From an uncultured Gemmatimonadaceae bacterium (GTDB taxonomy: Bacteria; Gemmatimonadota; Gemmatimonadetes; Gemmatimonadales; Gemmatimonadaceae), in the NCBI GenBank assembly GCA_963740355.1, contig CAVUDW010000001.1, positions 32,001 to 96,000 of the forward strand: a stretch of DNA of 64,000 nt. Direction: 5' to 3'. The position numbers and the translations under genes are program-made. Shown here piece by piece: positions 1 to 22,035 of the stretch. The notes below the pieces were generated by a model. That model was not told the origin of the DNA. It worked only from the letters and a program-made list of their open reading frames with translations, and searched no databases. Each line of letters begins with the position of its first letter. Position 1 is the stretch's first letter.

Positions 1-307
1 TCTCGGCGGAGAAACGGGTCTCGATCAGGTAGTGCTTCGGTGTGACAACGATCGCGGCAAGGACCGCTGCCATCAGCCCAGCAAAGGTCCAGATCGCCAA
101 CTTCTTGTGTCGCTGGAACGCACGGAACGGGAAGCCGGCGGCGACACGCAGGTTCGCGAGCACGAAGACCGGCGCCTCGTCCTGGAAGATCGGGCGACTG
201 TCGCCGAGTGCCGCAGGCGACGCACGCTGGACAGCATACGCGCGCGTGCTGAGCGCCACGGGAGGCGAGTCACCATCAGGCTGGTTGGATCGGGCGGGCA
301 AATTCAT
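1..307 (-). CDS. N-terminus of polysaccharide co-polymerase (Wzz/Wzc/GumC-like), runs off window
   Basis: Manual translation from ATG 307: MNLPARSNQ...FQRHKKLAIWTFAGLMAAVLAAIVVTPKHYLIETRF; basic patch + TM helix + PxxY typical of PCP N-termini; follows the OPX gene. Confidence 0.7.
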   Translation of the reverse strand, partial: MNLPARSNQPDGDSPPVALSTRAYAVQRASPAALGDSRPIFQDEAPVFVLANLRVAAGFPFRAFQRHKKLAIWTFAGLMAAVLAAIVVTPKHYLIETRFSAE

Positions 308-528: not shown

Positions 529-1203
529 TTACTCAACGACCACAACGTCGCCCGCCTGCAGCCGGAATGCGCCAGCTGGTCCGGTGTCGGTGAGCCCGGC
601 GAAGGTGAAGCGAATGCGGACCGGCGTCGGGACCTTGCGCAGCACGAAGATCCTGTCCTTGTGCGCGAATTCCGTCAGGCCACCCGCGCAGGCGAGCGCC
701 TCGGCGACACCGCTGCGCGGGCCGATCTTGCAAATGCCTGCGCGGGACACCGCGCCCAATACGGTGATCATCACATCCGGGACATCCTCGACCACGACGT
801 TGACGCGTGGCGCGAGGATGAGGTTGCCGTCACGCAGTGCCTTCTCGACCGCCTGGCCGACCTCGACCGGTGTCTTGCCCGCGACGGCGATGTCGTTGAT
901 GAGCGGGATCGCCAGCTTGCCGTCGGTTCGGACGCGCCCGCGCGTCGAGACTTTGTCGTTGTCGAAGACCTGCACGTTGATCAGGTCGCCGACGCCGACG
1001 ACGTACTTGGAGTCGGCGGCGCTTGGTTCTCTGGCGACGTAATCGGCAGCCCAGACGAATTGGCCGACCGGCTTGGCGCAACCGCCAGCGGTCAGGGCCA
1101 ACACGACCATCGCGACGGCCGTGGAGGCAGCGCGCAACTGGGTGAAGAAGCGCATCGGAGTGTGGGTGGGGTGCATGAACGAAAGTGTCGGGTGGGGACG
1201 CAT
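529..1203 (-). CDS. Short polysaccharide export (OPX/Wza-like) lipoprotein, Poly_export + one SLBB domain
   Basis: Lipobox LTAGGC; YVVGVGDLINVQV..VRTDGKLAIPLI export motif; AGGLTEFA SLBB; ends LQAGDVVVVE. Confidence 0.9.
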   Translation of the reverse strand: MRPHPTLSFMHPTHTPMRFFTQLRAASTAVAMVVLALTAGGCAKPVGQFVWAADYVAREPSAADSKYVVGVGDLINVQVFDNDKVSTRGRVRTDGKLAIPLINDIAVAGKTPVEVGQAVEKALRDGNLILAPRVNVVVEDVPDVMITVLGAVSRAGICKIGPRSGVAEALACAGGLTEFAHKDRIFVLRKVPTPVRIRFTFAGLTDTGPAGAFRLQAGDVVVVE

Positions 1204-1222: not shown

Positions 1223-2386
1223 TCAGCGAGAGCCAAAGGTGTATCCGATCTGCATCTGTGCCGCCATGCCGGATGCCTTGGTGACATCCTCACGCTGTCG
1301 GTACGCAACGCCACTGCCGAAAGTGAAGCCTGACCTGAGTACACGCCGAAACGACGCCGTGGCCGCGCGTGACTTGAATCGCAGCCCAGCACCGCTCGAC
1401 ACCTTGCTGTCAGCCATGGACGCGCCAAGGGTGACAAAGTTGCCCCGCTTCGCCTGAAAATCGTAGGCGACGGTTGCCGCACCGGTGGTCAACAACTGTC
1501 CGATACCGAACGCCTGCGACACTGCCCGCGTGTAGCCGGCAGAGAGTACGCCTGGCCCGATCGAGTCGCGCCCCTCAGCACTACCTGTCGGCAGGAATTT
1601 CGCCGGTCCGCCGGAGGAAAAGCGCGTCACGCCACCAATCAATCGAAGCTGTACCGAACCGAGCCGTGGAAGCCATCCAGCGCCAACAGACTGCGACGAC
1701 AGGGGCAGGCCGTTCGCCTTTCCCTCTTGGACGTCCGCGACGAACGTGTATCCCGCGCGGCGTGAGTATTGATGGGTGGATGATGCACGAGCGGTGAGCG
1801 CGCCGCCTGGGACAAGCACGGGTGAATCGAAGGTCACGTACGTGTAGCCGATTTCGGCGTGGCCAGTAGACGCAGCACTGAAGCGGCGGTCCGCCGACAC
1901 CACGCCTCCTCCGGACTTCTGGAACGAGAGGCCCAGCAACGGCAGTTGCACTGTACCGAGCACGTCGGTCGTGAGTCGCGTGCGATAGAACGCACCCGCC
2001 TGCCCCGTCGTCTGTGGTGTGAGGCGTCGAATTCCGTTGAGATTGAACTCGTAGGTATACGTATTCAGCGGCGACAGCTCGTTGTAGCGAATGGCGCTCC
2101 CCGCGGCGGTCAAGCCGAGACTGCCTCTCGCGCCCTGGCGGAGCACGGCGACGGCGGTGTTGATGCGGGTGACGAAGTCCTTGTCATCATCCCCGGTCAG
2201 GTAGCGCACGTTGCTGTCCCAGCCCTGCTCGGCCGTGGTGGTCCAGAGCCAGGAGCTGTGCACCGACCCAGCTGGCACCGGTCCGCTGCGCTGCGCCTCA
2301 AGCGATCCGGGCAGCGAACCGGACATAACGACAAAGCCGAGCGCGAGAACTTCTCGCGCTCCGAATCGGGCACTCACTCCGTTCAC
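1223..2386 (-). CDS. Outer-membrane beta-barrel protein associated with polysaccharide export
   Basis: Signal peptide; GWDSNV N-terminal motif; alternating beta-strand pattern; C-terminal QIGYTF; directly upstream of OPX. Confidence 0.75.
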   Translation of the reverse strand: MNGVSARFGAREVLALGFVVMSGSLPGSLEAQRSGPVPAGSVHSSWLWTTTAEQGWDSNVRYLTGDDDKDFVTRINTAVAVLRQGARGSLGLTAAGSAIRYNELSPLNTYTYEFNLNGIRRLTPQTTGQAGAFYRTRLTTDVLGTVQLPLLGLSFQKSGGGVVSADRRFSAASTGHAEIGYTYVTFDSPVLVPGGALTARASSTHQYSRRAGYTFVADVQEGKANGLPLSSQSVGAGWLPRLGSVQLRLIGGVTRFSSGGPAKFLPTGSAEGRDSIGPGVLSAGYTRAVSQAFGIGQLLTTGAATVAYDFQAKRGNFVTLGASMADSKVSSGAGLRFKSRAATASFRRVLRSGFTFGSGVAYRQREDVTKASGMAAQMQIGYTFGSR

Positions 2387-4158
2387 CTCGCCGCCGTACC
2401 CGAGAGACTTTCCGAACGCGGCTGGAATCGTGGCGACTCAGCCGCCGTGTAACGACGCGGTCGAGACGCACGCGGCTTGCGCCCGAGCATCAGGCGCAAT
2501 GGCACCGGCTTGCGCCCTCCGAGCGTGAAGATTGTGGCCGCGAGGATCATCACATCCAGACGGAACGAGACGTTGCGCACGTAGAGCAGGTCGTAGTGAA
2601 TCCACTGATGGAAGTCACCGGTCGCACGATCCTTGCGACAGACCTGCCACAGGCCGGTGATTCCAGGGCGAACCGAGAGGCGACCATTGCGCCACGGTAC
2701 GCAGATCTGGTTTTCACGGAACGGCGATGGCCGCGGCCCGACGAAACTCATCTCACCGCGCGCCACATTCCAGAGTTGCGGCAATTCGTCGACGTTCAGC
2801 TTGCGCAGCCAATGGCCAACCTTCGTCACGCGCGGGTCGTGATCCATCTTGAACTGCGGTCCGTCCATCTGCTGCTGCGCAGCCAGCGCGCGCTGCATGT
2901 CGTCAGCGTTCGTCAACATGCTGCGGAACTTCCAGCACTTGAACGCCCGGGCATCCTTGCCCTCGCGCGAGTCGCCGTAGAAGATCGGGCCGCTGGAGGT
3001 GAACTTGACCAGCAAGGCCATCACGATGAGGAGCGGCGAGAGCAGGACCAACGCCACGAAGGCCAGGATCGGCTCGAAGAACGCCTTCACCGTGACGTAC
3101 TTCGGAATCGGGCTGCGACTGGTTGGTTCGGGAGCCGCCACGAGATGTGCGGCGGTGTGGCGACGCTGACCGCCCATGGCACCGGCATGCGTCGAATCGC
3201 CGCTGATCACGCGGTGGCGCACCGTGACGCCCTTCAGCACTTCGGCGCCAGGCAACACGAGGCACTGCGCGACGACGGCATCTTGATGCACATGCGCGCC
3301 TTCGCCGATCGTGGTCGGACCAATCACCAGCGCGCCCTCGTCGATCAAGGCACCCTCACGCACCACCACCGGGCCAACCAGTCGCGCCGTGGGATGGACG
3401 TTCGCTCGTGGCGAACGCAGCGACGCATCCTGCCCGCGCACCTTGCCCAGCTCTCGCAGCGTGGACATCGCGCTGACCCGGCGCTCACTCAACGCAAGCG
3501 CACCCGCTTCGTCGTTGAGGTCGAAGCAGTCGCCGTGATACGGCACATCCTGATTGGGAATACCGCTCGACGAGAGCTGCATCCGCAAGCCCTCGAGTGA
3601 CGTCAGCGTCATCGGCATGGCCATCTGTGCACACGCCACCGGCACCAGCGACGCCAGCACGCCGGACGGGAACGGCCAGGTGACCGGCTCGAAGTAACGC
3701 TGGATGCGGCGCACGCGCCCATCGTCGTCTGCCTGCACCAATTCCTTGGTGTGCAGCGTCGGCGCCTCGAAGGCGACCAGGTGCCGCACCATGCGTGCGT
3801 CGTTGACGCTCGCAGTGCTCAGCGGTCGCAAGTCGACGCCGTCCGACGGGTAGCAGACGGGCGACACGAACAGGAATGAATCCGATGGCGTGAACCGCTC
3901 CATCTCGCTGCGGAACTGGCCAATGCTCTTGACGCGTTCCACGTCCGAATAGCCGGCGCGGATGCGCCGCTCATAGTCGGCGTCGACATCGAAGGCCGTG
4001 AGCACGATCGGCCGGTGCGCGGTGACGCGCAGCACACTGCGCATCAACTCGCGAAGCAACAGGTCGTCGGCGGTCGGCAGCAACAGCAGCGAACCGCTAT
4101 CGAGATCGTTTCCGGTATACGAAGGGCGTACGTCGAGCAGGACGGGAACGATGCTCAT
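2383..4158 (-). CDS. Fusion: degenerate nucleotidyltransferase-like + left-handed beta-helix + phosphoglycosyltransferase (bacterial sugar transferase)
   Basis: C-terminal [33 protein letters not shown]; central hexapeptide repeats ([13 protein letters not shown]); 4-nt overlap with both neighbours. Confidence 0.85.
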
Positions 4159-5417
4159 TTCAGTGTGGCCTGATCACGTGTCGGTCGAAGGGCATTGTCC
4201 ACGCGATCGCGTGCGAAACCGAATCCATTGCGCAGCCGTTCCGTGGCTGACTCGAGACTTGGCAGCAGCTCTGCGCTGGCGCCATCAGCCGCCACGCCCG
4301 ATGAGGTGCGGTCGAGCACCGAGAACTGATCTGGCAGCTGCGTGACACTCTTGAGGCGATCACCTGGCACGACGACACAGCGATCTGCCAGCACCGACGA
4401 GTCCACGATCGCGTCCTCACCAATCACACAATCGTCCCAGATGAATGACCGCGACACGAGCGCTCGAGCGGCCACCACGGTACGCTCGCCAATCGACGCA
4501 GGGCCAACGATCACGGCATCCGCTTCGACCCGCACGCCGGCACCGAGCAGGATGGGGCCGACGAGACGCGCACTGGGATGGATCACCGCCGTCGGGTGAT
4601 GCATCCCCTCACCCTCGCGCACATAGTGCGAGAGAAACGCCGGACGCTCGATCGCGCGTGTCACCAACCAGCGACTGACCGCGGCATAACTCGAATAATC
4701 GAGCACCTTGGCGGAGAGCCCGTGGACTTCGTGCATCGCGACATGGCCGCCTGCGGCATTCAGCCGGCCGAGCAGTCCTTCCTTGATGTCCTGATAACCA
4801 TGCTCGGCGACCGATTCCAGTGCGCTGCGTTCGAAGACGTAGATACCGGCCGGCTGTCGGCGCACACCGCTGGCCATGCCACGACGTCGACGATCAAACT
4901 CGACCACCACGGTCGCCACAGCGCCGGACTTCCGGTGCGCCGCAATCATGGCGCTGAAGTCGAGCGTGGGCACGATGGTGCCTTCGATGACGACGAAGAT
5001 CTTCGCATTCGTCATCACGGCGGCATCGCGTGCACAGCCAGCGGGCCCGCGGGGCTCATGATCCTCGAAGTAGTCGAGGGCGAGCTGCATCCGTGAGCCG
5101 TCGCCAAGCACTTCACGCAGCGACGGTGTCGCGCTGTTGGCGCACAACACGGCGGACTGAATCCCCGCGTCGCGCAGCCACTGCAGCGGATAGTTGATCA
5201 GCGGCGTATGCGCGACAGGCAGCAGCGGCCCTCGCAGCACTCGCTCGAACACGCCATCACCCCAGTGATGCGTGCCAGCCAGCACAATTCCGCACACGTC
5301 GTCGGCATCCGACGTCGCCCGCACAGCGGCGGCCGGTGCGTCTGCGTGCAGCTGGCCCTCCTGCTGCGCCGCAACGAATGGATCCAAGGGCATGAACGGC
5401 AACGTCGCCACCTTCAT
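4155..5417 (-). CDS. NDP-sugar pyrophosphorylase (Man-1-P guanylyltransferase)-like protein with LbH domain, degenerate active-site motif
   Basis: GIVLAG...PLLPVAHTPLI, EPRGPAGC, GIYVF, C-terminal hexapeptide repeats; start uncertain (5417 or 5486). Confidence 0.8.
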   Translation of the reverse strand: MKVATLPFMPLDPFVAAQQEGQLHADAPAAAVRATSDADDVCGIVLAGTHHWGDGVFERVLRGPLLPVAHTPLINYPLQWLRDAGIQSAVLCANSATPSLREVLGDGSRMQLALDYFEDHEPRGPAGCARDAAVMTNAKIFVVIEGTIVPTLDFSAMIAAHRKSGAVATVVVEFDRRRRGMASGVRRQPAGIYVFERSALESVAEHGYQDIKEGLLGRLNAAGGHVAMHEVHGLSAKVLDYSSYAAVSRWLVTRAIERPAFLSHYVREGEGMHHPTAVIHPSARLVGPILLGAGVRVEADAVIVGPASIGERTVVAARALVSRSFIWDDCVIGEDAIVDSSVLADRCVVVPGDRLKSVTQLPDQFSVLDRTSSGVAADGASAELLPSLESATERLRNGFGFARDRVDNALRPTRDQATLK

Positions 5418-5818
5418 GAACGTGAGAACTGATTGAAGCCCACTACTCCTGCACGGCTTACTCAGCCTAGCACGGAGCACCGACACGATCGCTTACGTGT
5501 GTGTGCACCAATGACTGGTACGCCTGCAGGTTCGTAACGACGTAATCGAATCTACGTGCACCGACAGCTTGTCCAGCGAAGTGCCGGAATCCGAGCCCGA
5601 GCCGGTACACGACAGCTCACGTAAACGTTAGTAGTCTCAAACCTAGCGAAACCTTGCTCGGAATGCACCTCCGCACGCCTCCAGCACATCCATGCGAGAG
5701 GAACGCACCATGGCATCGTCGACTCTCATGTCGTCGCTGATCATCAGCACAGCAGCTGGCAGTATCGACACCTGCACGATGCGAAGCGACACAGGAGAAA
5801 TCCAGCGGACCCAGCCTT

Positions 5819-7090
5819 TTGTGCGCGCCGCCACGATCGGTTCCGCTGAGCTCGCCGGGTGACCATGTCGTCGGATGGTCGTTTGCCGCCGGAGGGACCC
5901 GGCATCAGCTTCACGCCTCCCGATCACAATCTCTACGACGTACCACGTGCTACCGGTTCTGTCCCCTGACTGATATCGCCCTTCCGACCGTCCAGCTGCC
6001 GACCTCCACAGCAGAGCGTAACGACGCCGCCACCAGACCGGCGGCCTCGAAGCGACTTCCCTTCCTCGACGCGTTACGCGGCGTGGCAGCGATGTGGGTG
6101 GTGGTTTTCCACATTGGCGAAGGGCGGCAAGTGGCAGCCATGCAGTCCGTACTGCCGGCATGGTTGAACACGGCCATTTTCCCGTCGGGGCACTTCGGGG
6201 TTCCGATCTTTTTCGTCCTCAGCGGCTTCGTGATCGCGCTCTCGATCGGTACCGATCGCGTGACAGCCGGCTACGTCGGCCGCTTCGCCCTCCGACGCGC
6301 CATCCGGCTCGATATCCCCTATTGGGCCTCCATCGCGGTGACCCTCGGGTTCGTGGCCGTCAAGGCCGCGATGCAGCCTGGCAGCGCGCCGCCCCCGACG
6401 ACGATCGGCCAGATCCTGGCCCACATGTTCTACCTCCAGGATTTCCTCGGCTATCGCTCGATCAACACCGTCTACTGGACGCTTTGCTTCGAAATCCAGT
6501 TCTATCTGCTGTTCTGCGCGCTCCTTGGGGTGGCCCAGGCCTTCCAGCGCGATCAGGCCAGCCGTCGGTCGACCGCGGTGGTCTTCACACTCGCCGCGAT
6601 CACCTCGATCATCTGGCCGCTCGTGCCCTCGCTCCATCTACGCGGGCTCGCGCTGCCGAACTGGCACGGCTTCCTGCTCGGCGCCTTCGTCTACTGGTCG
6701 ATCAAGGGGACCATGCCGACCAGGTGGTACCTCCTCTACGCGGCGGCCCTGCTGGGTGTCTTCGCGGTGACCCACGACAGCTTCACCATCGTCTGTGTGG
6801 CGACCTCAGGCATAATCCTTCTGGTCGGCCTGGCTGGCAAGCTGGGCAGCTGGCTCGAAGCAGCCTGGCTGCAGTTCCTCGGCAAGATCTCTTACAGCCT
6901 GTACCTGCTCCACGTCCCGGTCAGCGGTGCGGCCTTCTTCGTACTGTCACGACTCCTTGGCCATTCGCCGGGTGAGGACTTCCTCGCCATGGTCGCCGTG
7001 ATCGCCATCAACTGCATTGCTGCGCAGCTGTTCTGGTGGGCTGTCGAGCGACCAAGTACCGCCCTCGGTCGTCGCTTGCGGAAGGGCTGA
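5819..7090 (+). CDS. Acyltransferase_3 (OafA-like) membrane O-acyltransferase
   Basis: LDALRGVAAMWVVVFH, GVPIFFVLSGF, YWTLCFEIQFY, LGKISYSLYLLH, VERP; true start probably downstream (~5960-6000). Confidence 0.9.
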   Translation: MCAPPRSVPLSSPGDHVVGWSFAAGGTRHQLHASRSQSLRRTTCYRFCPLTDIALPTVQLPTSTAERNDAATRPAASKRLPFLDALRGVAAMWVVVFHIGEGRQVAAMQSVLPAWLNTAIFPSGHFGVPIFFVLSGFVIALSIGTDRVTAGYVGRFALRRAIRLDIPYWASIAVTLGFVAVKAAMQPGSAPPPTTIGQILAHMFYLQDFLGYRSINTVYWTLCFEIQFYLLFCALLGVAQAFQRDQASRRSTAVVFTLAAITSIIWPLVPSLHLRGLALPNWHGFLLGAFVYWSIKGTMPTRWYLLYAAALLGVFAVTHDSFTIVCVATSGIILLVGLAGKLGSWLEAAWLQFLGKISYSLYLLHVPVSGAAFFVLSRLLGHSPGEDFLAMVAVIAINCIAAQLFWWAVERPSTALGRRLRKG

Positions 7091-7161
7091 CGTCCCCCGA
7101 ATCTCGCCGCTGGCGCCAGTCGCCGCGGCCCCCTGCTGCGTTCCCCGACTTCCTCACGATC

Positions 7162-9606
7162 ATGCGCCTCGCCCCTCCGATTCTTCTTGCTGCCCTCGCC
7201 GTTGCAGGATGCAGATCAGGGGAGAAGCAACCGCCGCCAGAGACCCGGATCGCTTGCACTGCAGTCCGCGCAACGGCGTCGATCCATTGTCGCAATGCCG
7301 TCATCACCGCCTCCGGTGTGCCTGCCGTCGATCGCTCGGGAAGTGCGCTGCTCCTGACCGCCCAGGGCGTCGATGTTCGGGTGCTGACGAGCGCGATCAG
7401 CTGGACGGATACCGGTGTCAGCTTCGACGCCGCCATTCAGAATCTTGCCGGCCAACGGATCGGATCGAGCAACGGCGACACCGCGGATCCTCGCGGCATC
7501 CGCATGGTATTCGTCGCACCAGAGGCCGAGCTCGCAGGTGCCGCGGCGCCAGCTCAGGTGATTGCCGCACCGGTGGAAAGCAGTGTCACGGGCCGTGACA
7601 GTGTGACAGGAGCGTCGCAACCCTTCGTGAAGTTCGCCGCGCTGCTCGACAGCGGCGCAGTGACGGCACCCACGCGTGTGCAGCTCAGCATTCCCGCCAA
7701 TGCACCGTCTGCGACCTTTGCGCTCGTCGTCGTTGCTCCGGTGAAGCATCCCCATGGTTGGCTGCGCATTGCACCAGCTGCCGTGGTCGTGGCCATCGGA
7801 CGGCCGCGCACCCTCGAGGCCGAACTGCGCGATGCACTCGGGCGCGCGATGCCCTCCACCGCTGTCACCTGGTCGACGTCCACGATCGAGAACGCCGACG
7901 TCACCTCTGACGGCGCCGTCAACGGAAAGAAGACGGGCATCGCGCGGGTGATCGTGACCTGCGACGCACCATGTGCCGCCGCCGGCGATACGGCGCAACT
8001 GGCGATTACCGCGGCCGAAGGAGTGACGCTTGCGGTGCAGCCACGCGCGCAGCACGCCATTTCCCGTTTCGTCTACGGCATCAATTTCGCCACCGATGAC
8101 AGCATCAGCTCGGGCGGCGGTTCGCCCTGGTACGGCGCAAAGATACCCCGCCTCATGACTATCAATCGCGTCGGCGGCAATCGCATGTCGGCGTACAACT
8201 GGCGCACGAATTTCTCCAACGCCGGCAACGACTATCGCTTCCAGAACGACCGCTACATCTCGGGCAGCGACGTCCCGGGCGAGGCCATTCGCAGCCGGAT
8301 TGCGTCCACGCTCGATCGCGGCGCCGCCAGCCTGATCACGATTCCGATGCTCCCTTTCGTGGCGGCGGATGCCCAGGGAGAGCCACTCGACACACTTGGC
8401 TCGACACACGACGCGCGCATGAAAGCGCATTTCGTTCCCAATCGTGCATCGCGCAGCGATGGCGACGCTCCGGGGACGGTCTACCAGGATCAGTTCGTAC
8501 AATGGGTGGACAGCATGTTCCCCGCCGCACGAACCGACACACTGCGTCCAATCTTCTTCAGCCTCGACAACGAGCCGGACATCTGGCACGCGACGCATCG
8601 CGAAATCATGAGCGATACGCTCGGCAAGCCGCGGTACCAGACGTATGATGGATTCATCGGCACGAGCATCATGTTCGCGAAGGCTGCAAAGTCCGTTCGG
8701 CCGGGCACCGTGATCTTCGGGCCAGCGGTCGCCACCTACGCCGGCGTGATGACGCTCGGCCAGTACCCGACCAGCGATCCGGTGTACGGCAAGAGTCCGT
8801 TCTTCGAGATCTACCTCGACAAGATGCATGCTGCCGAACAGGAAGGTGGCCAGCGTCTGCTCGACGTGCTCGACCTGCATTTCTACCCGGCGACGGGAAC
8901 CAGCAACGGCGAGATCACGAACGATTGGGCGAAGCAGGACGAGGAGATGGCGGAGAAGCGCATCCAGGCACCGCGATCACTCTGGGACTCGACCTATGAC
9001 GAGAAGAGCTGGGTCTCCGATGTCACCGGTGGGCCAATCGCGCTCTTCCCTCGCTTGCGTGAGATGATTGCCGGGCACTACCCGGGGACGAAGATGGCCA
9101 TCACCGAGTACTACTACGGTCGCGGTGGCGACATCTCCGGAGGCCTCGCGCAGGCCGACGTGCTTGGGATCTTCGGGCGCGAAGGTGCCTTTGCCGCAAC
9201 CTTCTGGGGGCAGGCTGCCGTCGACACGTACGGCAACAGCGGCGAGCGCGCGTACGCGTATGCGTTCGGCGCGTTCCGGCTCTTCCGAGACTACGACGGC
9301 GCCGGTGGAAGCTTTGGTGACATCGGGCTTGGCGCGGCCAGCTCAGACAACAGGAAAGCCTCGATTTATGCCAGCCGGCGCGCCGACGGCCGCATCGTGC
9401 TGATCGTGATCAACAAGTCGCCGCTCGCGCTCGATGCGGATATCCCGATGACTTCCGGCCCGCAACCGAAGGGTGCTCAGACGTACACCATGCGTGACGG
9501 GGCACCGTCGCCGGTCCGCGGTCCCGACATCACGGTGCCGGCCGGTGGCTACCTGAGTTTCAAAATGCCGGCCCGCTCCGCAACAACGCTCGTACTCGAC
9601 CCCTGA
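7162..9606 (+). CDS. Lipoprotein glycoside hydrolase family 44 with Ig-like (Big_2) domain
   Basis: Lipobox LAVAGC; ISRFVYGIN, RVGGNRMSAYNW, SNAGNDY, LDNEP (acid/base), LDLHFYP, ITEY (nucleophile), QADVLGIFG. Confidence 0.88.
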   Translation: MRLAPPILLAALAVAGCRSGEKQPPPETRIACTAVRATASIHCRNAVITASGVPAVDRSGSALLLTAQGVDVRVLTSAISWTDTGVSFDAAIQNLAGQRIGSSNGDTADPRGIRMVFVAPEAELAGAAAPAQVIAAPVESSVTGRDSVTGASQPFVKFAALLDSGAVTAPTRVQLSIPANAPSATFALVVVAPVKHPHGWLRIAPAAVVVAIGRPRTLEAELRDALGRAMPSTAVTWSTSTIENADVTSDGAVNGKKTGIARVIVTCDAPCAAAGDTAQLAITAAEGVTLAVQPRAQHAISRFVYGINFATDDSISSGGGSPWYGAKIPRLMTINRVGGNRMSAYNWRTNFSNAGNDYRFQNDRYISGSDVPGEAIRSRIASTLDRGAASLITIPMLPFVAADAQGEPLDTLGSTHDARMKAHFVPNRASRSDGDAPGTVYQDQFVQWVDSMFPAARTDTLRPIFFSLDNEPDIWHATHREIMSDTLGKPRYQTYDGFIGTSIMFAKAAKSVRPGTVIFGPAVATYAGVMTLGQYPTSDPVYGKSPFFEIYLDKMHAAEQEGGQRLLDVLDLHFYPATGTSNGEITNDWAKQDEEMAEKRIQAPRSLWDSTYDEKSWVSDVTGGPIALFPRLREMIAGHYPGTKMAITEYYYGRGGDISGGLAQADVLGIFGREGAFAATFWGQAAVDTYGNSGERAYAYAFGAFRLFRDYDGAGGSFGDIGLGAASSDNRKASIYASRRADGRIVLIVINKSPLALDADIPMTSGPQPKGAQTYTMRDGAPSPVRGPDITVPAGGYLSFKMPARSATTLVLDP

Positions 9607-9643
9607 CACTCGCGCCGCAGTGGCGGCGCGATTCGAGTGTCAG
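9603..9643. terminator. GC-rich hairpin between convergent genes (possible bidirectional terminator)
   Basis: TCGCGCCGC-AGTG-GCGGCGCGA stem (9610-9631) plus outer CTGACACTCG/CGAGTGTCAG arms; no U-tract. Confidence 0.55.
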
Positions 9644-10260
9644 TTGACGATGTCGGCGCTGCGACCGCGAGTCCGAACCGTCGCAGCCGGCACTTCGACC
9701 ACGCTGTTGGCGGGGACGGAGGTCATCACGACGGCGTTGGCCATGATCTTGGTGCCACGCCCAATCGTGATCGGGCCGAGCAAGGCGGCGCCTGGCCCAA
9801 CGTGCACATCTTCCTCGAGCGTCGGGCCACCTACCTCGCGCGTGATCGGGTCGATGCTCACGCCAAGCGTCACCGACTGGAAGAGAATGCACCCGGCGCC
9901 GACCACCGCTTCCCGACTGAGCACGAGTGCCGTGCCGTGCACCAGCGCCACGCCTGGCGCGAGGTCCGCGTCCCAGTGAATTTCGGCGCCATAGATGTGG
10001 CGAATCAGTCGCGACACGATCATCGCCAGCGGTGTCAATCGCAGCGCCAGAAGCAGTCGCATGAAGCGGTAGGCGACCATCATCTGGAACCCAATCTTCT
10101 TGAACGAGTCGACGAAGATCGAACTCGAACGACCGGCTGGCTTGTTGCCGTACTTGGTATCACCGCGCACCACGGCATCGTGATCGGCACGGACACCAAT
10201 TACAAAGCTGCGGAATGGTCCCACCCGTCGGGCGGGGAGCGACTCCGTCATGGTGCCCAT
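9640..10260 (-). CDS. CysE/serine O-acetyltransferase-like hexapeptide acyltransferase
   Basis: YGAEIHWDADLAPGVALVHG, QSVTLG, PTLEEDVHVGPGAALLGPITIG, ANAVV; GAGG SD before ATG 10260. Confidence 0.85.
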   Translation of the reverse strand: MGTMTESLPARRVGPFRSFVIGVRADHDAVVRGDTKYGNKPAGRSSSIFVDSFKKIGFQMMVAYRFMRLLLALRLTPLAMIVSRLIRHIYGAEIHWDADLAPGVALVHGTALVLSREAVVGAGCILFQSVTLGVSIDPITREVGGPTLEEDVHVGPGAALLGPITIGRGTKIMANAVVMTSVPANSVVEVPAATVRTRGRSADIVN

Positions 10261-10285
10261 GTGGTGCGCCTCGAATTCGCCCGTG

Positions 10286-11053
10286 TCATTCCGCGGCCGC
10301 AGCAGCTTCGAGGATCGGTACGAGATCCGCCACCGAATGCACCCGCGACATCGCTTCACTGCCAAGGCTGACGCCGAAGGCAAACTCGAGCGAAAGCAAC
10401 AGGTTCAACATGCCGAGCGAGTCCCACTGCTCGATTTCATCGCGCGCTGCATCGGCTGCGGGCGCTTGCGCCAGGCCAAAGGTATGTCCCACCACATCAC
10501 GCACCGCCTCGATGTCGATCTCGCGCGAACCGGCGGTCGCATCTCGATCCGATTCCGGGCGAGCCGGGTTGCCAGCGTATCGGGCGCCTGCAGGTACATC
10601 ACCCTTCACCACGCTGCCTGGGGCGACCACGGCACCTTCGCCAATCGTCGACCCGCGCAAGACAACGACGCGCGCGCCGAGCCGTGCCTTCCGACCAATG
10701 TGAATCGCGCCTGTGGAGCCGGCAGAATCATGTTTGCCGGCTTCGTGAAAGTCCGTATCCATCAGCATGACGAACGGGCCAAGCGTCGCACCATCCCCGA
10801 TCACGATGGTTTCGTGCGAGGCGATGGCTGCCCCATGCCCGATAAAGACGCCCTCGCCGATCGTGAGGTTGCCGATCGGCCCCGTCACGAGGTGCGACAT
10901 GGCCGGTGTCGAGCGCACAAGCACCCCTCGACCGAGCGAGATCCGACCAAGGTTCTGCACGTGAAGATTTCCCTCGACCACAACCCCCTGGCCGACGACA
11001 GTGCAGGCCTTCAGCTGGCGGCGGCTACGGAACGCCTGCCACGCGGAGTTCAT
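10286..11053 (-). CDS. Hexapeptide acyltransferase fused to C-terminal acyl carrier protein
   Basis: LbH repeats, DTDFH, AGNPARP; C-terminal ACP with WDSLG phosphopantetheinylation motif and LEFAFGVSL. Confidence 0.85.
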   Translation of the reverse strand: MNSAWQAFRSRRQLKACTVVGQGVVVEGNLHVQNLGRISLGRGVLVRSTPAMSHLVTGPIGNLTIGEGVFIGHGAAIASHETIVIGDGATLGPFVMLMDTDFHEAGKHDSAGSTGAIHIGRKARLGARVVVLRGSTIGEGAVVAPGSVVKGDVPAGARYAGNPARPESDRDATAGSREIDIEAVRDVVGHTFGLAQAPAADAARDEIEQWDSLGMLNLLLSLEFAFGVSLGSEAMSRVHSVADLVPILEAAAAAE

Positions 11054-13413
11054 GCGCTCACCGCATTCGCATGCGGGGCGTCCACCCAGTCGATCGCGAT
11101 GCCACGGGGACTCGGGAATGGCTGTTCACAGTCCCACGTGAAGAGCGTGCCATCGGCGTTGCGGCTCAACTCCGACGCCAGCAACAGGTCGTGGCACGGC
11201 TTGTTCTTGGAGGTCTTGAGGTAGGCCGCGTGCAACTCCTTGAGCCCGCGGCTGCGTGCCCACTCCGTGGCCAGGTGCAGCATGGCGTGCTCGATACGGC
11301 GACCCATCACGCGACAACTGAGCACGAAGTCCACCACGTGACCGATGCCGTCACGCTCCTCGACGCTGAGGATGCCAGTGAGGCCCGCCGAACCAAACTT
11401 GTCGGCCACCGTGATGGCCCACAGCGCGTGGTTCGGGTCAGCATTCCACTCCAACAGCTCAGCCTCACTCTGACGGCGCGTGGTGAGGTTCATCTGGTTG
11501 GTCTTGTTCAGCAACTGTGCCGTGCGCGTGATGTTCGCGGCGTCGAGCGGCTCGACTCGCACCGCAATGCCAAGGCTCTCGAGCCACTCATCGATCGATC
11601 CGACGTTGGCCTTCACAGCTCCACGTTCACGTTCCGCAGCGTACAACGCGGTGCGCTCAGCATCCTCAGCACTGATGGCCGGTGTGTCGAAGCATCGCAG
11701 CCCGAGCAGTCGCTCCGTGTAGAGCAGCTTGTCTTCAGGCCACTCGGGTACGAAGACCTCGGAAAGTGTCTCGCGAACGCGCGCGCGCTCGACCGGGTTG
11801 TCGTCGATGAACACCACCGACTGCAGGCCAAGATTCAGCTCGGCCGCGAGGTCGGCGATGTTCTGCGCCTTGTCCGACCAGTTGATCCGCCAGCCGACGA
11901 AATCCTTCTTCCGAAGCACCATCTGCGGATGATTCTCGATCGCCTCGAGGGCCACGCTCTCGGTGTTCTTGCTCACGATGCCCAGCACGACGCCGCGCCT
12001 CGTGAGCGCCTTCACCGCGTGCTGGAAATCCACGAAGGACTCACCGACGCCGTCGTGGCCGCCCAGCTGCAGATTCTCCCAGCCGATGTCGCCCACGATG
12101 CCACCCCACATCGTGTCGTCGAGATCGAGCACGAGCAGCTTGCGCGCCTGGCCCGAGAGCGCCCTGGCCGCGGCCTTCAGCTCCTGCGCAACTTCCGCGA
12201 AGAGTTCCGCGGAGTACGGGACCTTGCCGAGATACCAGCCCTTGGCCATGGAGCGGCCACGCATCGCCGTCGCTTCGAGCCACCGCTGCGCATTCATGAC
12301 GTACACATTCGGCACAGTCGCCAGTTGCGACATCAGGCGCGCGTTCGCGATCGTGAGCGCCCACGTCAGGCCACCGGGACGTGCATCGATGAGGCCGAGT
12401 CCGCGCTGGTGCGACGGCAGGCTCCACGTGGGTACGAAGACGAAGCGATACGACTCGGCGCCGCGGCGAACCAGCTCGGTGAAGGCATCGACGTCGGCGA
12501 GCAACTCAGCCTCGGTGGCACCGTCACCACGGACGATGCGATCGAAGGCGGGCAGCGCGAGTTCCGGTCGCGTCCAGACCAGCACGAAGTCCGCGGCATC
12601 GCTCGGCGGCCCGCTGAGCAGGCCTTGCGTCGTCTGACAGAACGGCGCGTCGGCGACTTCCATCACCGGTGCGTCGGCTGCATCAGAGAGGCGCACCGCG
12701 AGATCACCGACGGTGAAATCGGCCAGCACCATGCCACGCAGTGGCTTCGATGACACGGCCGGCAGGATGTCGCGCACGGTGCCGCTCGCGTTCGGCTTGC
12801 GCGGGGCGGCAGCGGCTGTCGGGGCAGCGGTGTCGTCCAGTGCACGGATCACGCGCGCGGGAATACCGCCGGCGATCACTCCGTCGGGGATGTTGCCAGA
12901 GACGATCGAGCCCGCGGTGATGACGGCGTTGGCACCGATCGTCGTGCCGGGAAGCACCGTGACGCGACCGGCCAGCCAGGTGCCGGCACCGATGCGAATT
13001 GGCGCAGTGGTACCCAATTCGGCGGTCAGGTCGGTGTCGTCGATGATGCAGTACGGGCCGATGCTGACATGGTCGCCGAGCGTGACCTGCTCTGCCGCGC
13101 GAATCGACGTGCCGTAGTTGACGTGCACACCATCACCGATGTCGATCACAGCGCCTTGCTGCGCGACGAGTTCGACTGGGCTGAAGGTGCTGGTGAACGC
13201 GAGGTCGCTCCCGATGCGAATCTCACCCGCGTTGATGATCCGTGGCTGCCCGACCGTCCGGGCGCGTGGTCCAACCCGGGTCACGTCCTTGAGATACAGC
13301 GGCGCGAGGACCGATCCGAACACATAGCGCACGCCTTTGCGGGCACGCTCAGCGAGCGGGAGGTCACTGTCGCGCTGCAGGCTGCGCTTAACTTTTTCGA
13401 CGAAGGCGTTCAT
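11050..13413 (-). CDS. Hexapeptide acyltransferase fused to FkbH-like (HAD-IIIC) glyceryl transferase/phosphatase
   Basis: N-terminal LbH (GGIPARVI); LVLDLDDTMWGG, SKN, INW, FIDDNPVER, KTNQMNLTT, LSCRVMGR FkbH motifs. Confidence 0.9.
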   Translation of the reverse strand: MNAFVEKVKRSLQRDSDLPLAERARKGVRYVFGSVLAPLYLKDVTRVGPRARTVGQPRIINAGEIRIGSDLAFTSTFSPVELVAQQGAVIDIGDGVHVNYGTSIRAAEQVTLGDHVSIGPYCIIDDTDLTAELGTTAPIRIGAGTWLAGRVTVLPGTTIGANAVITAGSIVSGNIPDGVIAGGIPARVIRALDDTAAPTAAAAPRKPNASGTVRDILPAVSSKPLRGMVLADFTVGDLAVRLSDAADAPVMEVADAPFCQTTQGLLSGPPSDAADFVLVWTRPELALPAFDRIVRGDGATEAELLADVDAFTELVRRGAESYRFVFVPTWSLPSHQRGLGLIDARPGGLTWALTIANARLMSQLATVPNVYVMNAQRWLEATAMRGRSMAKGWYLGKVPYSAELFAEVAQELKAAARALSGQARKLLVLDLDDTMWGGIVGDIGWENLQLGGHDGVGESFVDFQHAVKALTRRGVVLGIVSKNTESVALEAIENHPQMVLRKKDFVGWRINWSDKAQNIADLAAELNLGLQSVVFIDDNPVERARVRETLSEVFVPEWPEDKLLYTERLLGLRCFDTPAISAEDAERTALYAAERERGAVKANVGSIDEWLESLGIAVRVEPLDAANITRTAQLLNKTNQMNLTTRRQSEAELLEWNADPNHALWAITVADKFGSAGLTGILSVEERDGIGHVVDFVLSCRVMGRRIEHAMLHLATEWARSRGLKELHAAYLKTSKNKPCHDLLLASELSRNADGTLFTWDCEQPFPSPRGIAIDWVDAPHANAVSA

Positions 13414-13490: not shown

Positions 13491-15047
13491 TCACAGTGCA
13501 CCATCCATTCGGATGACGGCCGGCAGGGTTCGAGCCAGAATCATCGCGTCTCGAGCAAATGACCAGTCAGCGATATACGCCGACTCGAGCTGGATGACCT
13601 CTTCGAAGTGCACGATCCGGTTCCTCCCGGACACCTGCCATGGCCCGGTCAGCCCCGGCCGCACATCGAGGCGCACCAGGTGGCGCTCGGCGTACCTGGC
13701 GACCTCATCAGGAAGCGGGGGCCGAGGGCCAACCAATGACATCTCGCCGCGCAGCACGTTCCAGAATTGCGGCAGCTCGTCGAGACTGGTGCGCCGAAGG
13801 AACGCGCCGAGGCGCGTGATTCGCGGGTCGTGGGCGATCTTGAAGAGGGGCTCCTCGCCGTAGACGTTGCGAGCGCGCAACTCTTCCTGCTGCTCCTCGG
13901 CGGAGGCGATCATGCTCCGGAACTTCCACATGTGGAAGTGGCGGCCGCCCTGCCCCACGCGCACCTGCTTGAACAGCGCGGGTCCGCGTGACGTCACACG
14001 AACGGCGAGCGCGACCAGCAGGTACACCGGCGCCAGCAGGATCAGCAGCATGGACGAGATCGTGATGTCCATCGCTCTTTTCACCACCAGCTGGCGACCG
14101 CGTTCACCAGGGCGAACGAGCCGCATCAGTGGGTCGCCGTGGTGGAACACGAGCTGCGGCTCGAAGCCATGCAGCGCGACCGTGCGCGGCAGGCAGACGA
14201 CGTTGCATCCCGCCGCATCGGCCACGCGTGCGAGGCGTTCGGCCAGCGGCTCGCTCAAGTGTCCGAACAGCACCACCGTATCGGCGCGATGTTCGTCGAT
14301 GAGTCGCATCATGGCACTGGTCGGGCCGAGAGGGCCATCCGAGTGCTCGATGCGCGTCGTGTCGACTTCACCGACGAAGCGGAATTCCGTCGGGTCGGCG
14401 AAGGCGGGATTCGAACGCCCCGCGCGCAGGTCGCGGGTCGGCGCCACCAGGATGGTTCGCAATGCGAGCGTGGCCCGCGGGCGGATCCGTTCGACGACGA
14501 TGTCCAGGACCAGTCGAACGGCCACCAGTGTCGCCGCAATCGCGAGTCCGACGAAGGCGACGCCGAACAGCCGGGACAGGTCAGGCGGCGTAAAGAGATC
14601 GGTCCAGGTGACGAACAGGACGCCTAGCACAGCGCCCATGGCCACGCTGCGAATGTGTCGCTTGCGGGCGCCGCCGACGTAACCGCCACAGATCGTCAAG
14701 CCAAGCAGCACCGCGACCTGCAGAGGGACCGCCGGTACGGCTCCGGCCGGTACAATGGTCGCCAGTGCGGTCGCGATACGTGGGCCGAACCAGGCCTGGT
14801 CGCGTGCAGCCGAGAGAATGATGCGAAGGATCTCGAGCGTCAGGAGGTCGGCGCAGACGAGCACGAACACCCGAAGCATGCTTCGCCAGACGTGCCGCCA
14901 CACCGCATGCGGCGCTCGGGCATGGAGGATTTCCGGCAGTGGAACGCCGTTGTATCTGGAGTCGTCTGACGGACGGAACAGTGGAAGCGGGTCTGTCGAG
15001 CGCCTGCGCTGCCGCGACCGTGCTGACGGGGGCGGAGGGGGTGTCAT
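13491..15047 (-). CDS. Undecaprenyl-phosphate glycosylphosphotransferase (WcaJ/CpsE-like priming transferase)
   Basis: N-terminal TM helices, [38 protein letters not shown]. Confidence 0.92.
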
Positions 15048-15194: not shown

Positions 15195-16853
15195 TTACCG
15201 GACACGTGGGTGGAAACGGAACTCGACCGTGAGATTTCGCTTGTCGATCTGCAGCTCTTCGTTCTGGAAGCACAGGCCCAGTGCCTGCCAGTACAGGTTC
15301 AGTCGGTTCTGCGAGCTGACGGACGCTTCCAGCCAGCCTGCCGGCGTGAGTGTCGACCCTCGCGCGCCAAAAGCCAAACTGACGTCGTGCTTGCAGAGTC
15401 CGTTGCCATTCGGGCGCGGGATGGTGAAGAACGAGTCGTCATCCCACTTGATGCGATAGGCGTAAAGGCCGAGCGAGCGCTTGGGGCTGGCGAAGTCGAG
15501 GTTGAGGCGCTGGGTGACGCTGCCGGGGCCGATGACGGCACCGAGGACCTGGCCTTTCTGTGTGAAGCCGCCCTGGACGGCGCGGCTGGTGTACCAGGAG
15601 CCTGAGGGGCGTTCGCGAAATGTCGAGCTCTGTGTGGTCTGGGAATACTCGGCACCGACGCGCCACGTCCAGTCCTTCCAGCGCATCGCTTCGACGTGTT
15701 GCAGGCCGAGCGTGAGCGCCTGCGAATGGTTCGGCGACTCAAAAAAGTCCCGGACGCCAGTCGGCAATTCGGCGCGCCCCCACTCCACCCAGATCTCCGT
15801 GCCGTCGTTCGGCAAGCGCCAGTCGGCGAAGACACTGAAGAGTTGATCGCGGCCGGCGTTCTGCGTCTTGTCGTTGTAGGGTGCCGCGTTGGGCGTGCCC
15901 ACTGGCACCAGTGGATCGATCAGATGTTGATACCACACGTTGCCCAGCATGGGCGCCGCAACGAGGCGCGCGGCGCCGATCGAGAGCCCCTTTTCGAAGT
16001 CGGGACGCCAGACCACGGCGATCCCCGAGAGCGTGCGCGTCGAGTCTTCCTTTTCGCGAAAGAAGAATGGTGAGACGGACAGGCCACCGACGAAATAGCG
16101 AATGTCCAATTCGCCCTTGGCTCTGATCGGCGTCGTGGTCCTGATGTACGCGCGCGGTGATCCTGCGGCTTGAGTGCTGAGCAGCAAGGCGTTGTACTGC
16201 CCTGGCCCCCACCACTCCGATTCGGTCGTGAAACCCACTTCGACGCGTGGCGTTCGGAACCAGAGTGCGAGCGCGCCTGGTTCCACACGACGGAGCGCCG
16301 TATTCCCGAACCGTCGTGGCGAGTCGAGCGAGCGCGGGATGTAGTGATACGGCGACGCCCACGGGCTGTAGTCGGAGCGCAGCGGCGGCACGAATTGAGG
16401 ATTGTCGGGCAACACGAAGTCGGCGTTCTCAGCGTACCAATACGTGGGCGCGATGATTGCGCCCCACCGAGAGTTGCTGCCACAAATCGCGATGCCGCCC
16501 GTCACGCTGTACGAGAGCCCCTTGCCGGCCCACATCGGGCCGTCGTTCGCCGGGAGCGGGAATGACTCTTGTGATGTAACGAGCACCTCGGGCAACACCG
16601 CCGCCACGCGAAATGGCGCCGGATTGCTGTCGGCGAGCATGCGCGCCTTGGCCGCATCCGTGGACGAACGTGTGAGGGACCACGGGGTCCCGGCTCGGAT
16701 GCTGCGCGCGCGCTCGTTTTCTTCTGCGTAGCTGCCCGGCAGTGAAGTCGCGAGAGCACCACCGGCACATCGTGCGGACGGAGGCAGCACCTGCGCGGCG
16801 AGTGGCGCGGCGAATAGCGGCAGCGCGATCAGCGCGCGAAGATGTATTTGCAT
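15195..16853 (-). CDS. Capsule assembly Wzi-family outer-membrane protein (paralog 1)
   Basis: Signal peptide; NDGPMWAGKG; WWGPGQYNALLLS; GQVLGAVIGPGS; beta-strand C-terminus. Confidence 0.8.
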   Translation of the reverse strand: MQIHLRALIALPLFAAPLAAQVLPPSARCAGGALATSLPGSYAEENERARSIRAGTPWSLTRSSTDAAKARMLADSNPAPFRVAAVLPEVLVTSQESFPLPANDGPMWAGKGLSYSVTGGIAICGSNSRWGAIIAPTYWYAENADFVLPDNPQFVPPLRSDYSPWASPYHYIPRSLDSPRRFGNTALRRVEPGALALWFRTPRVEVGFTTESEWWGPGQYNALLLSTQAAGSPRAYIRTTTPIRAKGELDIRYFVGGLSVSPFFFREKEDSTRTLSGIAVVWRPDFEKGLSIGAARLVAAPMLGNVWYQHLIDPLVPVGTPNAAPYNDKTQNAGRDQLFSVFADWRLPNDGTEIWVEWGRAELPTGVRDFFESPNHSQALTLGLQHVEAMRWKDWTWRVGAEYSQTTQSSTFRERPSGSWYTSRAVQGGFTQKGQVLGAVIGPGSVTQRLNLDFASPKRSLGLYAYRIKWDDDSFFTIPRPNGNGLCKHDVSLAFGARGSTLTPAGWLEASVSSQNRLNLYWQALGLCFQNEELQIDKRNLTVEFRFHPRVR

Positions 16854-21446: not shown

Positions 21447-22035
21447 ATTCCGGCATGGTGGCGTCGCCAGCAGCGGCGATGCCATCCCGCACGAAGACAG
21501 CCCGAATCGTGCGCCAGAGCACTGCGATGTCGAGCGCCAGCGAACACTCGTCGACATACTGAACATCGAGATCGAACTTGGCGGCCCAGCCAATGGCGTT
21601 CCGACCCGAGACCTGGGCCAGGCCCGTCAAGCCGGGCCTCGTCTCGTGTCGTCGACGATGTCGCGATGAGTATCGCGGCAGGTATTGCGGGAGCAGCGGT
21701 CGCGGGCCGACCAGGCTCATGTCGCCACGCAGGACGTTGAGCAATTCGGGAAGCTCGTCCAATGACGATGCCCGCAGCCTGCGACCGAAGGGCGTCAATC
21801 GCTCGGAGTCCGAGAGTAGTGCGCCCGTCGCATCTCGCGCATCGGTCATGGAGCGGAACTTGATCATGCCGAACTCGCGGTCACCGCGGCCGATGCGCCG
21901 CTGCCGGAACAGCACCGGGCTGCCGATGCGCTGCCGCACGAGCAGCGCCACATAGGCCATGATCGGCAGCCAGAGGGGCGCCGAGCCGATGACCAGGACG
22001 AGATCGAAAAACCGCTTGCCGCGATAGCCTGACAT
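21394..22035 (-). CDS. Small monotopic phosphoglycosyltransferase (PglC/EpsL-like)
   Basis: KRFFDL, GSPVLFRQ, KFRSMTD, SLDELPEL, VGPRPLL, GLAQVSGRN, MPEF. Confidence 0.92.
   Translation of the reverse strand: MSGYRGKRFFDLVLVIGSAPLWLPIMAYVALLVRQRIGSPVLFRQRRIGRGDREFGMIKFRSMTDARDATGALLSDSERLTPFGRRLRASSLDELPELLNVLRGDMSLVGPRPLLPQYLPRYSSRHRRRHETRPGLTGLAQVSGRNAIGWAAKFDLDVQYVDECSLALDIAVLWRTIRAVFVRDGIAAAGDATMPEFIGYETPVSPSSPESVR

Follow-up and report, generated by a model that had tools for sequence, protein, structure and literature searches.

At its first membrane step, the making of a polysaccharide ties up scarce undecaprenyl phosphate and nucleotide sugars, and the control of this step in bacteria is only starting to be understood. 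Pseudoenzymes of the pyrophosphorylase fold are best represented here by eIF2B, whose gamma and epsilon subunits are non-catalytic proteins built of a nucleotidyltransferase (NTase)-like domain and a left-handed beta-helix (LbH), one of which carries an exchange-factor domain at its C terminus. Another such protein, GMPPA, is described as binding GDP-mannose (PMC11228364; PMC9168903). Among the phosphoglycosyl transferases (PGTs), the starter enzymes of polysaccharide synthesis, WbaP has an accessory domain that senses uridine nucleotides, and UMP inhibits the enzyme, according to PMC10942596; the PGT EpsZ is activated by direct binding of the response regulator EpsW, according to PMC12802240. 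Here we describe two overlapping genes, P0001 and P0002, from an uncultured Gemmatimonadaceae bacterium (assembly GCA_963740355.1). They lie in a stretch of 64,000 nucleotides (contig CAVUDW010000001.1, positions 32,001 to 96,000 of the forward strand), called the window below, to which all coordinates refer unless another locus is named. The pair is probably an undescribed control or assembly unit for the first polysaccharide step, one that combines known kinds of component: pyrophosphorylase-fold pseudoenzymes and PGT accessory modules.

The gene pair

The pair sits on the minus strand within a large polysaccharide locus (G+C content of the window, 64%). P0001, a stand-alone pseudo-nucleotidyltransferase with an LbH, is encoded at 4155..5417 and has 420 amino acids when read from its ATG; an alternative upstream GTG at 5486 would extend the gene to 4155-5486 and the product to 443 amino acids. 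P0002, encoded at 2383..4158, is a fusion of an NTase-like and LbH module to a PGT domain. The stop codon of P0001 and the start codon of P0002 share the ATGA at 4155-4158, and since a start/stop overlap of this kind (here 4 bases) is the usual sign of translational coupling, the two genes are likely to be coupled in translation. A sequence-only reading of this stretch had pointed to two overlapping genes of common architecture and had proposed that their products form a heteromeric sensor of nucleoside diphosphate (NDP)-sugars that gates polysaccharide initiation. The genes and their overlap are where that reading placed them, and the sequence strings it quoted are all found in the translations, IHPSARLVGPILL at P0001 residues 279-291 and the P0002 13-mer compared with it at residues 254-266.

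Fold and active site of P0001

P0001 is predicted to consist of an NTase-like domain (residues ~41-262) and an LbH (~266-360), flanked by disordered, poorly conserved N- and C-terminal tails; whichever start codon is used, the first 35 residues are poorly conserved and of low model confidence. Its AlphaFold (AF2) model, with a mean predicted local distance difference test (pLDDT) of 80.2 and a predicted template modelling score (pTM) of 0.74, is confident at residues 41-360. The best Foldseek match of this model was a cyanobacterial UDP-glucose pyrophosphorylase (8x7s; E 1.7e-18, template modelling (TM) score 0.6-0.7), and further matches, with E to ~1e-13 and TM scores of 0.5-0.7, were plant and human GDP-mannose pyrophosphorylases (VTC1 and GMPPB among them), GMPPA, eIF2B epsilon and ADP-glucose pyrophosphorylases. 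In Pfam, P0001 matched LbH_EIF2B, Hexapep and NTP_transferase (41.7 bits, cut-off 21.2). The last match covers only positions 21-135 of the 245 in the profile, and the signature loop is therefore left unmatched.

We located this loop by hidden Markov model (HMM) alignments to 8x7s and VTC1 and by the family alignment. It comprises residues 42-63, CGIVLAGTHHWGDGVFERVLRG (5229..5294, minus strand), and aligns without gaps with the canonical LAGGxGTRLxPLTxxxPK. As the sequence-only reading had it, GTHHWG at residues 48-53 and RG at residues 62-63 stand in place of GGxGTR...PK. For VTC1, PMC9168903 describes a pyrophosphate site made up of Gly9, Thr12, Arg13 and Lys23, a metal-binding and catalytically critical pair, Asp111 and Asp219, a contact of Lys196 to the sugar phosphate, and contacts of position 80 and Gly85 to guanine. 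These residues were mapped onto P0001 through HMM alignments to 8x7s, Leishmania GMPP and VTC1. All four pyrophosphate-site positions are lost (Gly9 corresponds to T49, Thr12 to W52, Arg13 to G53 and Lys23 to G63), as are both metal-binding positions (Asp111 corresponds to T147, which is T, A or S in the family, and Asp219 to K237). Retained are Lys196 (K212), position 80 (D119) and Gly85 (G124), all three of them invariant in 42 homologues, and K212, which answers to the Lys of the Glu-Lys pair for the sugar phosphate in active enzymes, has Asp210 nearby. By these alignments, the phosphate, metal and sugar machinery appears to be gone from P0001, while the base-side wall remains.

The sequence-only reading had asked whether the degenerate motif is conserved across homologues. 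In most of the 42 aligned sequences the altered loop is indeed retained and reads LAG[ST][HY]xWG[DE]xxF...RGP, with a few outliers that have PRP instead of RGP. Conservation of the loop (0.70-0.86) and of the stretch EPRGPAGCAR (0.90) places them among the best conserved blocks of the protein. A Trp-containing loop recurs in homologues from Planctomycetota, as GALPWDE in locus L009 and GVHRWDN in locus L004. The altered loop is not in decay, and its conservation, with that of the pocket blocks, points to purifying selection on the altered site.

The other PF00483 genes of the same genome provided an internal control. All six keep GxG[TS]R, two of them with ManC-type loops, and P0001 is the weakest of the genome's seven PF00483 matches (40.8 bits, profile positions 21-137). 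Judged from its residues, P0001 is probably catalytically dead as a pyrophosphorylase. A GDP-mannose dehydratase-like gene in the window had prompted the idea that P0001 is the only GDP-mannose pyrophosphorylase of the genome; this was ruled out by the six canonical PF00483 genes elsewhere.

The fusion protein P0002

Small monotopic PGTs are defined by an Asp-Glu pair and by a single membrane helix with a Ser-Pro break. The C-terminal domain of P0002 (residues 353-591; 2383..3102, minus strand) has both, and on this ground is an intact, PglC-like small monotopic PGT. It matches Pfam Bac_transf (PF02397) at residues 358-545 (E 8.5e-59, 198.5 bits against a cut-off of 27) and TIGR03025 (E 1.3e-73). 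In the model, residues 350-550 align with PglC (8g1n_A; Z 18.3, root mean square deviation (rmsd) 3.0, 177 aligned residues, 37% identity), and residues 342-549 with the catalytic part of WbaP (8t53_A; Z 19.0). In 42 P0002-family sequences, D457, E458, P460 and Q461 of the DELPQ motif (residues 457-461) are invariant, as is GPRPSP, and a single long predicted membrane helix (353-387) carries S374-P375; the sequence-only reading was thus right to call the domain intact on the strength of its dyad. P0002 is not a large WbaP-like PGT: the model shows a soluble alpha/beta domain and a beta-helix for residues 1-345, Pfam gave no CoA_binding_3 match, and WbaP aligns with residues 342-549 only.

The N-terminal module (residues 1-331; 3166..4158, minus strand) combines an eroded NTase-like domain (~1-240) with an LbH (~250-320). 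No Pfam or NCBIfam model, nucleotidyltransferase models included, matched residues 1-250. The LbH is recognized by Pfam weakly, at residues 252-320; the LbH_EIF2B model matches P0002 as it does P0001, and Hexapep matches occur in both. A BLASTP comparison of the two proteins aligned the LbH part only (36% identity over 55 residues, E 2e-9). Because direct sequence comparison is blind to the fold of the N-domain, profile-profile and structural evidence was needed. Alignment of the P0001 family with the P0002 family by hhalign gave a probability of 99 and E 9.2e-18 over 276 columns. In the P0002 model (pLDDT 77.8, whole-protein pTM 0.57), residues 3-331 aligned with VTC1 (7x8k_C) at Z 20.3 (rmsd 4.5, 292 aligned residues, 7% identity; VIA-align), and the same segment aligned with GMPPB at Z 20.0 and with eIF2B gamma at Z 19.1. 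The structure matches of both models and the profile-profile alignment bear out the common NTase-like and LbH architecture, and the N terminus of the fusion is of the NTase fold.

This copy is the more eroded of the two, as had been supposed: beyond the missing Pfam nucleotidyltransferase match, in the hhalign family alignment the P0002 loop is without GGxGTR...PK, the region of the Lys reads GS, and the first metal-binding Asp maps to V101. The region of the base-binding motif is unconserved (blocks of 0.42-0.43). The best conserved stretch of the N-domain, by conservation blocks, is residues 139-170 (of which 139-158 correspond to 3685..3744, minus strand), which is modelled with low pLDDT in the monomer and forms part of the interface predicted with P0001. 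In true enzymes the sugar-binding hairpin has the motif Y-G...E-K-P or G-V-V...F-x-E-K-P. Residues 139-158 of P0002 appear to be the counterpart of this hairpin, which P0001 lacks. Between the LbH and the PGT domain runs a linker, residues 321-352 (3103..3198, minus strand; pLDDT 29-46, conservation 0.27-0.44).

Predicted complex of P0001 and P0002

A complex of P0001 (residues 36-365) and P0002 (residues 1-345) was predicted with custom alignments. The prediction scored 0.72 (0.72, 0.71 and 0.73 in the individual runs) versus 0.00 for the best of three controls; in the benchmark, 116 of 157 solved complexes and 2 of 215 mismatched pairs attained this mark. The runs agreed in at least 69% of contacts, and the pLDDT of the partner was at least 79. 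In the predicted interface the two LbH domains contact each other (P0001 284-339 with P0002 259-314), and a P0002 hairpin, residues 139-154, lies against P0001 residues 170-189 and 212-228. Within the P0002 N-terminal module, conservation is higher at the predicted interface than elsewhere (0.80 vs 0.58; none of 10,000 permutations reached this value). As a modelling result, the prediction supports P0001-P0002 binding.

Co-occurrence, adjacency and spread

A phmmer search with P0002 residues 1-250 against 1.84 billion representatives returned 220 proteins at E <= 0.001, and in these the N-domain is almost always found at residues 1-230 of proteins of ~580-610 residues. In a word-index search, PF02397 was present in 116 of 120 proteins among the matches listed. 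P0001 and P0002 both form conserved families, which rules out chance as the origin of the arrangement.

Among 301 genomes sampled from the phylum, the P0002 N-domain was found in 4, all belonging to the window's own family; in a sample of 401 genomes of that family it was found in 21, including 10 of the 14 from the window's own genus. The P0001 family (E <= 1e-40) was present in 22 of the same 401 genomes, namely in those 21 and in G601, an assembly that is 72% complete and in 620 contigs. In 19 of 20 relatives the two genes are direct neighbours on one strand, P0001 leading; in the remaining one, G622, each is on a contig of its own.

A genome scan with a Planctomycetia member yielded 40 loci, of which 11 hold the full-length fusion (10 in Planctomycetota, 1 in Vicinamibacteria) and 29 match the PGT domain only. 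Each of these 11 fusion loci has a P0001 homologue upstream of the fusion gene and in the same orientation; it is the direct neighbour in L004, L025 and L013, and in the remaining 8 it is ~2.4 kb away, the gap being filled by a Wzc-like gene in L009, the one that was inspected. This homologue, too, matches the Pfam NTP_transferase profile only from position 22. Thus the pair is found in at least three phyla, and the fusion is carried by a cultured species, Gemmatirosa kalamazoonensis (P0086). A metagenomic open reading frame (ORF) of 951 amino acids, P0094, holds both proteins in one frame.

The Wzc-like gene (Wzz plus an AAA_31 P-loop) is placed directly after the pair in L004 (6356-8623 of that locus) and between the genes of the pair in L009 (1545-3974 of that locus), which hints at a three-gene unit in Planctomycetota. 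L009 also has a P0002-type ORF of 1022 amino acids (3983-7051), which, like P0083 (966 amino acids) and P0096 (1016 amino acids), carries an extra C-terminus, ~450 residues long in L009, that is either a fusion or a merged gene call. P0083 and P0096 had been considered as fusions to P0001 and were rejected, as what follows the P0002-like part in them is the downstream beta-barrel. Three short P0002 relatives without the PGT (P0041, P0045 and P0050) were likewise rejected as true split forms; by eye, their Arg/Ser-rich tails at the start of the PGT look like frameshifted or truncated calls. The sole longer relative of P0001 that a search returned was an unrelated phosphomannomutase-type fusion.

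Locus context

The gene next downstream of P0002, in the same export operon, encodes a putative outer-membrane beta-barrel (BBP2_2; 1223..2386, minus strand; Pfam E 4.6e-5, just under the cut-off). A Wza-like polysaccharide export protein (Poly_export and SLBB by Pfam; 529..1203, minus strand) and the start of a further gene running off the window (2..307, minus strand; an ORF with no Pfam match) lie beyond it. By analogy with L004 and L009, the gene at 2..307 possibly encodes a Wzc-like chain-length/kinase protein. Just upstream of the pair, on the opposite strand, are two adjoining genes, for an Acyl_transf_3 protein (5819-7090) and for an 856-amino-acid protein with a glycoside hydrolase family 44 domain and Big_2 (7036-9606, plus strand).

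The window has three starter PGTs within 20 kb, so that several starter enzymes compete for one lipid carrier. Besides P0002, they are a PGT of 518 amino acids with Bac_transf at residues 323-512 (13491-15047, minus strand) and a small PGT of 213 amino acids (21394-22035, minus strand), whose gene adjoins that of a DegT-type aminotransferase (20289-21446). A PglD-like acetyltransferase, a PglF-like dehydratase and a Wzy-like polymerase are also encoded in the window. An epimerase/reductase-like gene comes after a GDP-mannose 4,6-dehydratase-like gene (E 4.6e-140; together 41678-43819, minus strand), which suggests that a GDP-6-deoxyhexose is made in or near the locus.

Two divergent Wzi-like (Caps_assemb_Wzi) genes lie side by side at 15195-16853 (minus strand) and 16879-18573 (plus strand). 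Three consecutive genes at 9640-13413 (minus strand) encode hexapeptide-repeat proteins, which may form an acyl-modification module for the polysaccharide. Inspection by eye revealed an FkbH-like LDLDDTMWGG stretch after the beta-helix of the 787-amino-acid protein (11050-13413) and a carrier-protein-like DSLG stretch at the end of the 255-amino-acid protein (10286-11053).

Discussion

We consider it rather probable that P0001 and the N-terminal module of P0002 make up a non-catalytic accessory heterodimer of the PGT, that is, a regulatory or assembly unit. The explanation builds on the observed folds, loss of catalytic residues, conservation, co-occurrence and synteny, and on a heterodimer that is modelled. 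P0001 and P0002 residues 1-330 would be paralogous dead descendants of a GDP-mannose-pyrophosphorylase-like enzyme with an NTase domain and a short LbH. They would stand side by side via their beta-helices, with the P0002 hairpin packed against the nucleotidyltransferase domain of P0001, and the heterodimer would lie at the cytoplasmic face of the membrane, connected by the ~30-residue linker to the PglC-like PGT, which would start the exopolysaccharide encoded by the locus. Such a layout would copy that of eIF2B gamma/epsilon, with two dead paralogues of which one has a C-terminal catalytic domain. The most likely accessory role of the module would be to set the activity or the assembly state of the starter enzyme. 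P0001 would be the likelier subunit to bind a nucleotide-type ligand, because the base-contacting positions and one phosphate-binding Lys are still present in it, and the P0002 N-terminal module would be an adaptor, because the base-contacting and Lys positions are lost from it.

That a ligand binds, what the ligand is and how it affects the PGT are matters that we infer, and ligand-gated control is a tentative element of the accessory-heterodimer explanation, one that we hold to be possible at best. The heteromer proposed by the sequence-only reading gains support from co-occurrence, adjacency, the single-ORF fusion and the complex prediction, and the sugar part of its NDP-sugar sensor idea is weakened by the absence of the sugar-holding hairpin from P0001. 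Sensing is favoured by the conservation of the P0001 pseudo-pocket, a scaffold by the floppy linker and the missing hairpin. A more specific form of sensing, which we regard as doubtful, is a composite pocket across the P0001/P0002 interface that would read a cytoplasmic nucleotide or nucleotide sugar and whose occupancy would switch the tethered PGT. To this pocket P0001 would contribute the D119/G124 base wall, Lys212 and the His-His-Trp loop, and P0002 would supply the deleted hairpin in trans. A GDP-sugar would be the candidate ligand, given the GDP-mannose dehydratase-like and epimerase/reductase-like genes in the window. If the composite pocket were real, it would decide which of the three PGTs of the locus gets scarce undecaprenyl phosphate, and the pair would show the eIF2B gamma/epsilon layout at work in bacteria, bound to the membrane and serving as a metabolite sensor.

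Several observations weigh against the accessory heterodimer or its ligand-gated form. The profile alignments that underlie the residue mapping of P0001 have only 15-18% identity. Compared with 8x7s, P0001 is short by ~23 residues between strands 168-174 and 187-196, where the sugar-holding hairpin is, and the equivalent of Asn173 is also lost, which argues against canonical NDP-sugar recognition. The P0001 side of the predicted interface is not more conserved than the rest (0.73 vs 0.70; permutation p 0.22, with buried and exposed residues pooled). The complex prediction may be recall, because the GMPPA/GMPPB, VTC1-KJC2 and eIF2B gamma/epsilon complexes have been solved, and, as it covered the heterodimer only, a preference over homodimers does not follow from it. 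The single-ORF fusion P0094 is one sequence on one contig; the search for longer P0001 relatives gave no other such fusion, but it also missed P0094 and is thus weak evidence of rarity. Finally, the ~30 residues of the linker are weakly conserved and of low confidence, and no defined contact between module and PGT is predicted (pTM 0.57). A floppy linker without a predicted contact makes rigid allosteric coupling less likely, and the linker would suit a tethered scaffold no less than an allosteric switch.

Indeed, the dead heterodimer might have no small-molecule ligand at all and serve purely as a scaffold, which oligomerises the PGT or docks glycosyltransferases or the Wzc-like kinase; we consider this unlikely, if worth serious attention. 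A flexible, weakly conserved linker suits such a scaffold, as does the loss of the phosphate, metal and sugar positions from P0001 and of the base-binding motif, too, from the N-terminal module of P0002; eIF2B gamma/epsilon, the closest architectural analogue, is itself a scaffold, and a Wzc-like gene stands beside or between the pair in L004 and L009. In addition, oligomerisation is the role described for LbH domains of this family in PMC9168903, and dimerisation of the PGT is described as important for WbaP (PMC10942596) and EpsZ (PMC12802240). However, the pseudo-active-site blocks of P0001 (loop 41-70, EPRGPAGCAR and YQDIKE) are among its best conserved, and D119, G124 and K212 are invariant, which a pure scaffold would not need unless this surface is a protein interface.

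Another reading is that P0001 is still an enzyme, be it a transferase of a different kind or a nucleotidyltransferase whose loop (His-His-Trp, Arg62) is non-canonical, and channels its product to the PGT, with the P0002 N-terminal module as the dock. The His and Arg of the conserved altered loop could bind phosphate, K212, D119 and G124 are kept, and pairing with a PGT suits channelling; the best NCBIfam match of P0001, moreover, is a mannose-1-phosphate guanylyltransferase model (E 1e-28). This match, however, stays below the cut-off of its model (100 bits, cut-off 440), P0001 has neither the loop Arg and Lys nor the two metal-binding Asp nor the sugar hairpin, and with six canonical PF00483 enzymes in the genome there is no supply gap to fill, so that we regard residual catalysis as improbable. 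Even less probable, and in our view hardly credible, is that the beta-helix parts are acyltransferases, which would make P0002 a bifunctional acetyltransferase-PGT like PglB of Neisseria. PGTs that are bifunctional through an additional catalytic domain are recognised as a class in PMC10186338, Hexapep matches are present in both proteins, and the locus encodes several other hexapeptide proteins. Nevertheless, the helices are short (~5 turns), their best LbH matches are the non-catalytic LbH_EIF2B and GMPPB_C types, they stand behind an NTase-like domain just as the LbH of GMPP and eIF2B does, and no acyltransferase model matched at its cut-off.

If the accessory heterodimer is real, the pair would be a third, unrelated solution to PGT control after the WbaP accessory domain and EpsW-EpsZ, in which pseudoenzymes derived from enzymes that make sugar donors have been recruited and one of them welded to the starter transferase. 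The carriers are soil and water bacteria, which are hard to study; the pair itself is directly testable, because its soluble parts are small and a cultured species, G. kalamazoonensis, carries the fusion. Full-text literature searches gave no publication that we recognised as describing an architecture of a pseudo-NTase pair plus PGT; the 2021 PNAS catalogue of PGT fusions was outside their coverage, and a prior mention there is possible. The terms nucleotidyl, fusion, hexapeptide, regulatory domain, pyrophosphorylase and Gemmatimonad are all absent from the main text of the 2024 PNAS survey of PGTs (PMC11626204).

In the WbaP accessory domain and in EpsW-EpsZ, as in the proposed pair, a monotopic PGT is modulated by a cytoplasmic module or partner protein that is itself non-catalytic. 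The folds are unrelated: WbaP has a Rossmann-like domain of the CoA_binding_3 type behind four membrane helices and EpsW is a receiver domain, whereas the pair would place an NTase-like and LbH heterodimer on a small PGT which, unlike WbaP, has no extra membrane helices. P0002 resembles the bifunctional monotopic PGTs described in PMC10186338 in that a soluble domain is fused to one end of a small PGT core; in contrast to these, its fused domain is without the catalytic residues of the parent family and has a separate paralogous partner gene.

Closer in fold are human GMPPA/GMPPB (7d72-7d74) and Arabidopsis KONJAC/VTC1 (8yre), in which, as proposed here, an inactive paralogue binds its partner via the LbH and regulates it; the GMPPA/GMPPB and VTC1 structures are among the top structural matches of both P0001 and the P0002 N-terminal module. 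However, the partner of GMPPA, KONJAC or GlgD is an active pyrophosphorylase, whereas here both paralogues appear to be dead and the only intact catalytic domain is the PGT. GMPPA also keeps a near-canonical signature loop, and that of P0001 is far more degenerate. The layout of eIF2B gamma/epsilon (5b04, 6i3m, 6jlz), which includes the best single-sequence match of P0001 in the PDB (eIF2B epsilon, E 6.4e-13), is the nearest to that of the pair, with two paralogous non-catalytic NTase-like and LbH subunits, one of which has a C-terminal catalytic domain. The likeness does not extend to eIF2B alpha/beta/delta, for which no counterparts are known as partners of P0001 and P0002, and eIF2B is eukaryotic and soluble, its appended domain being a HEAT-repeat nucleotide exchange factor, whereas that of the pair is a membrane PGT. 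With these differences, the pair would offer, in bacteria, a clean example of two pseudoenzymes joined in a heterodimer with the layout of eIF2B gamma/epsilon.

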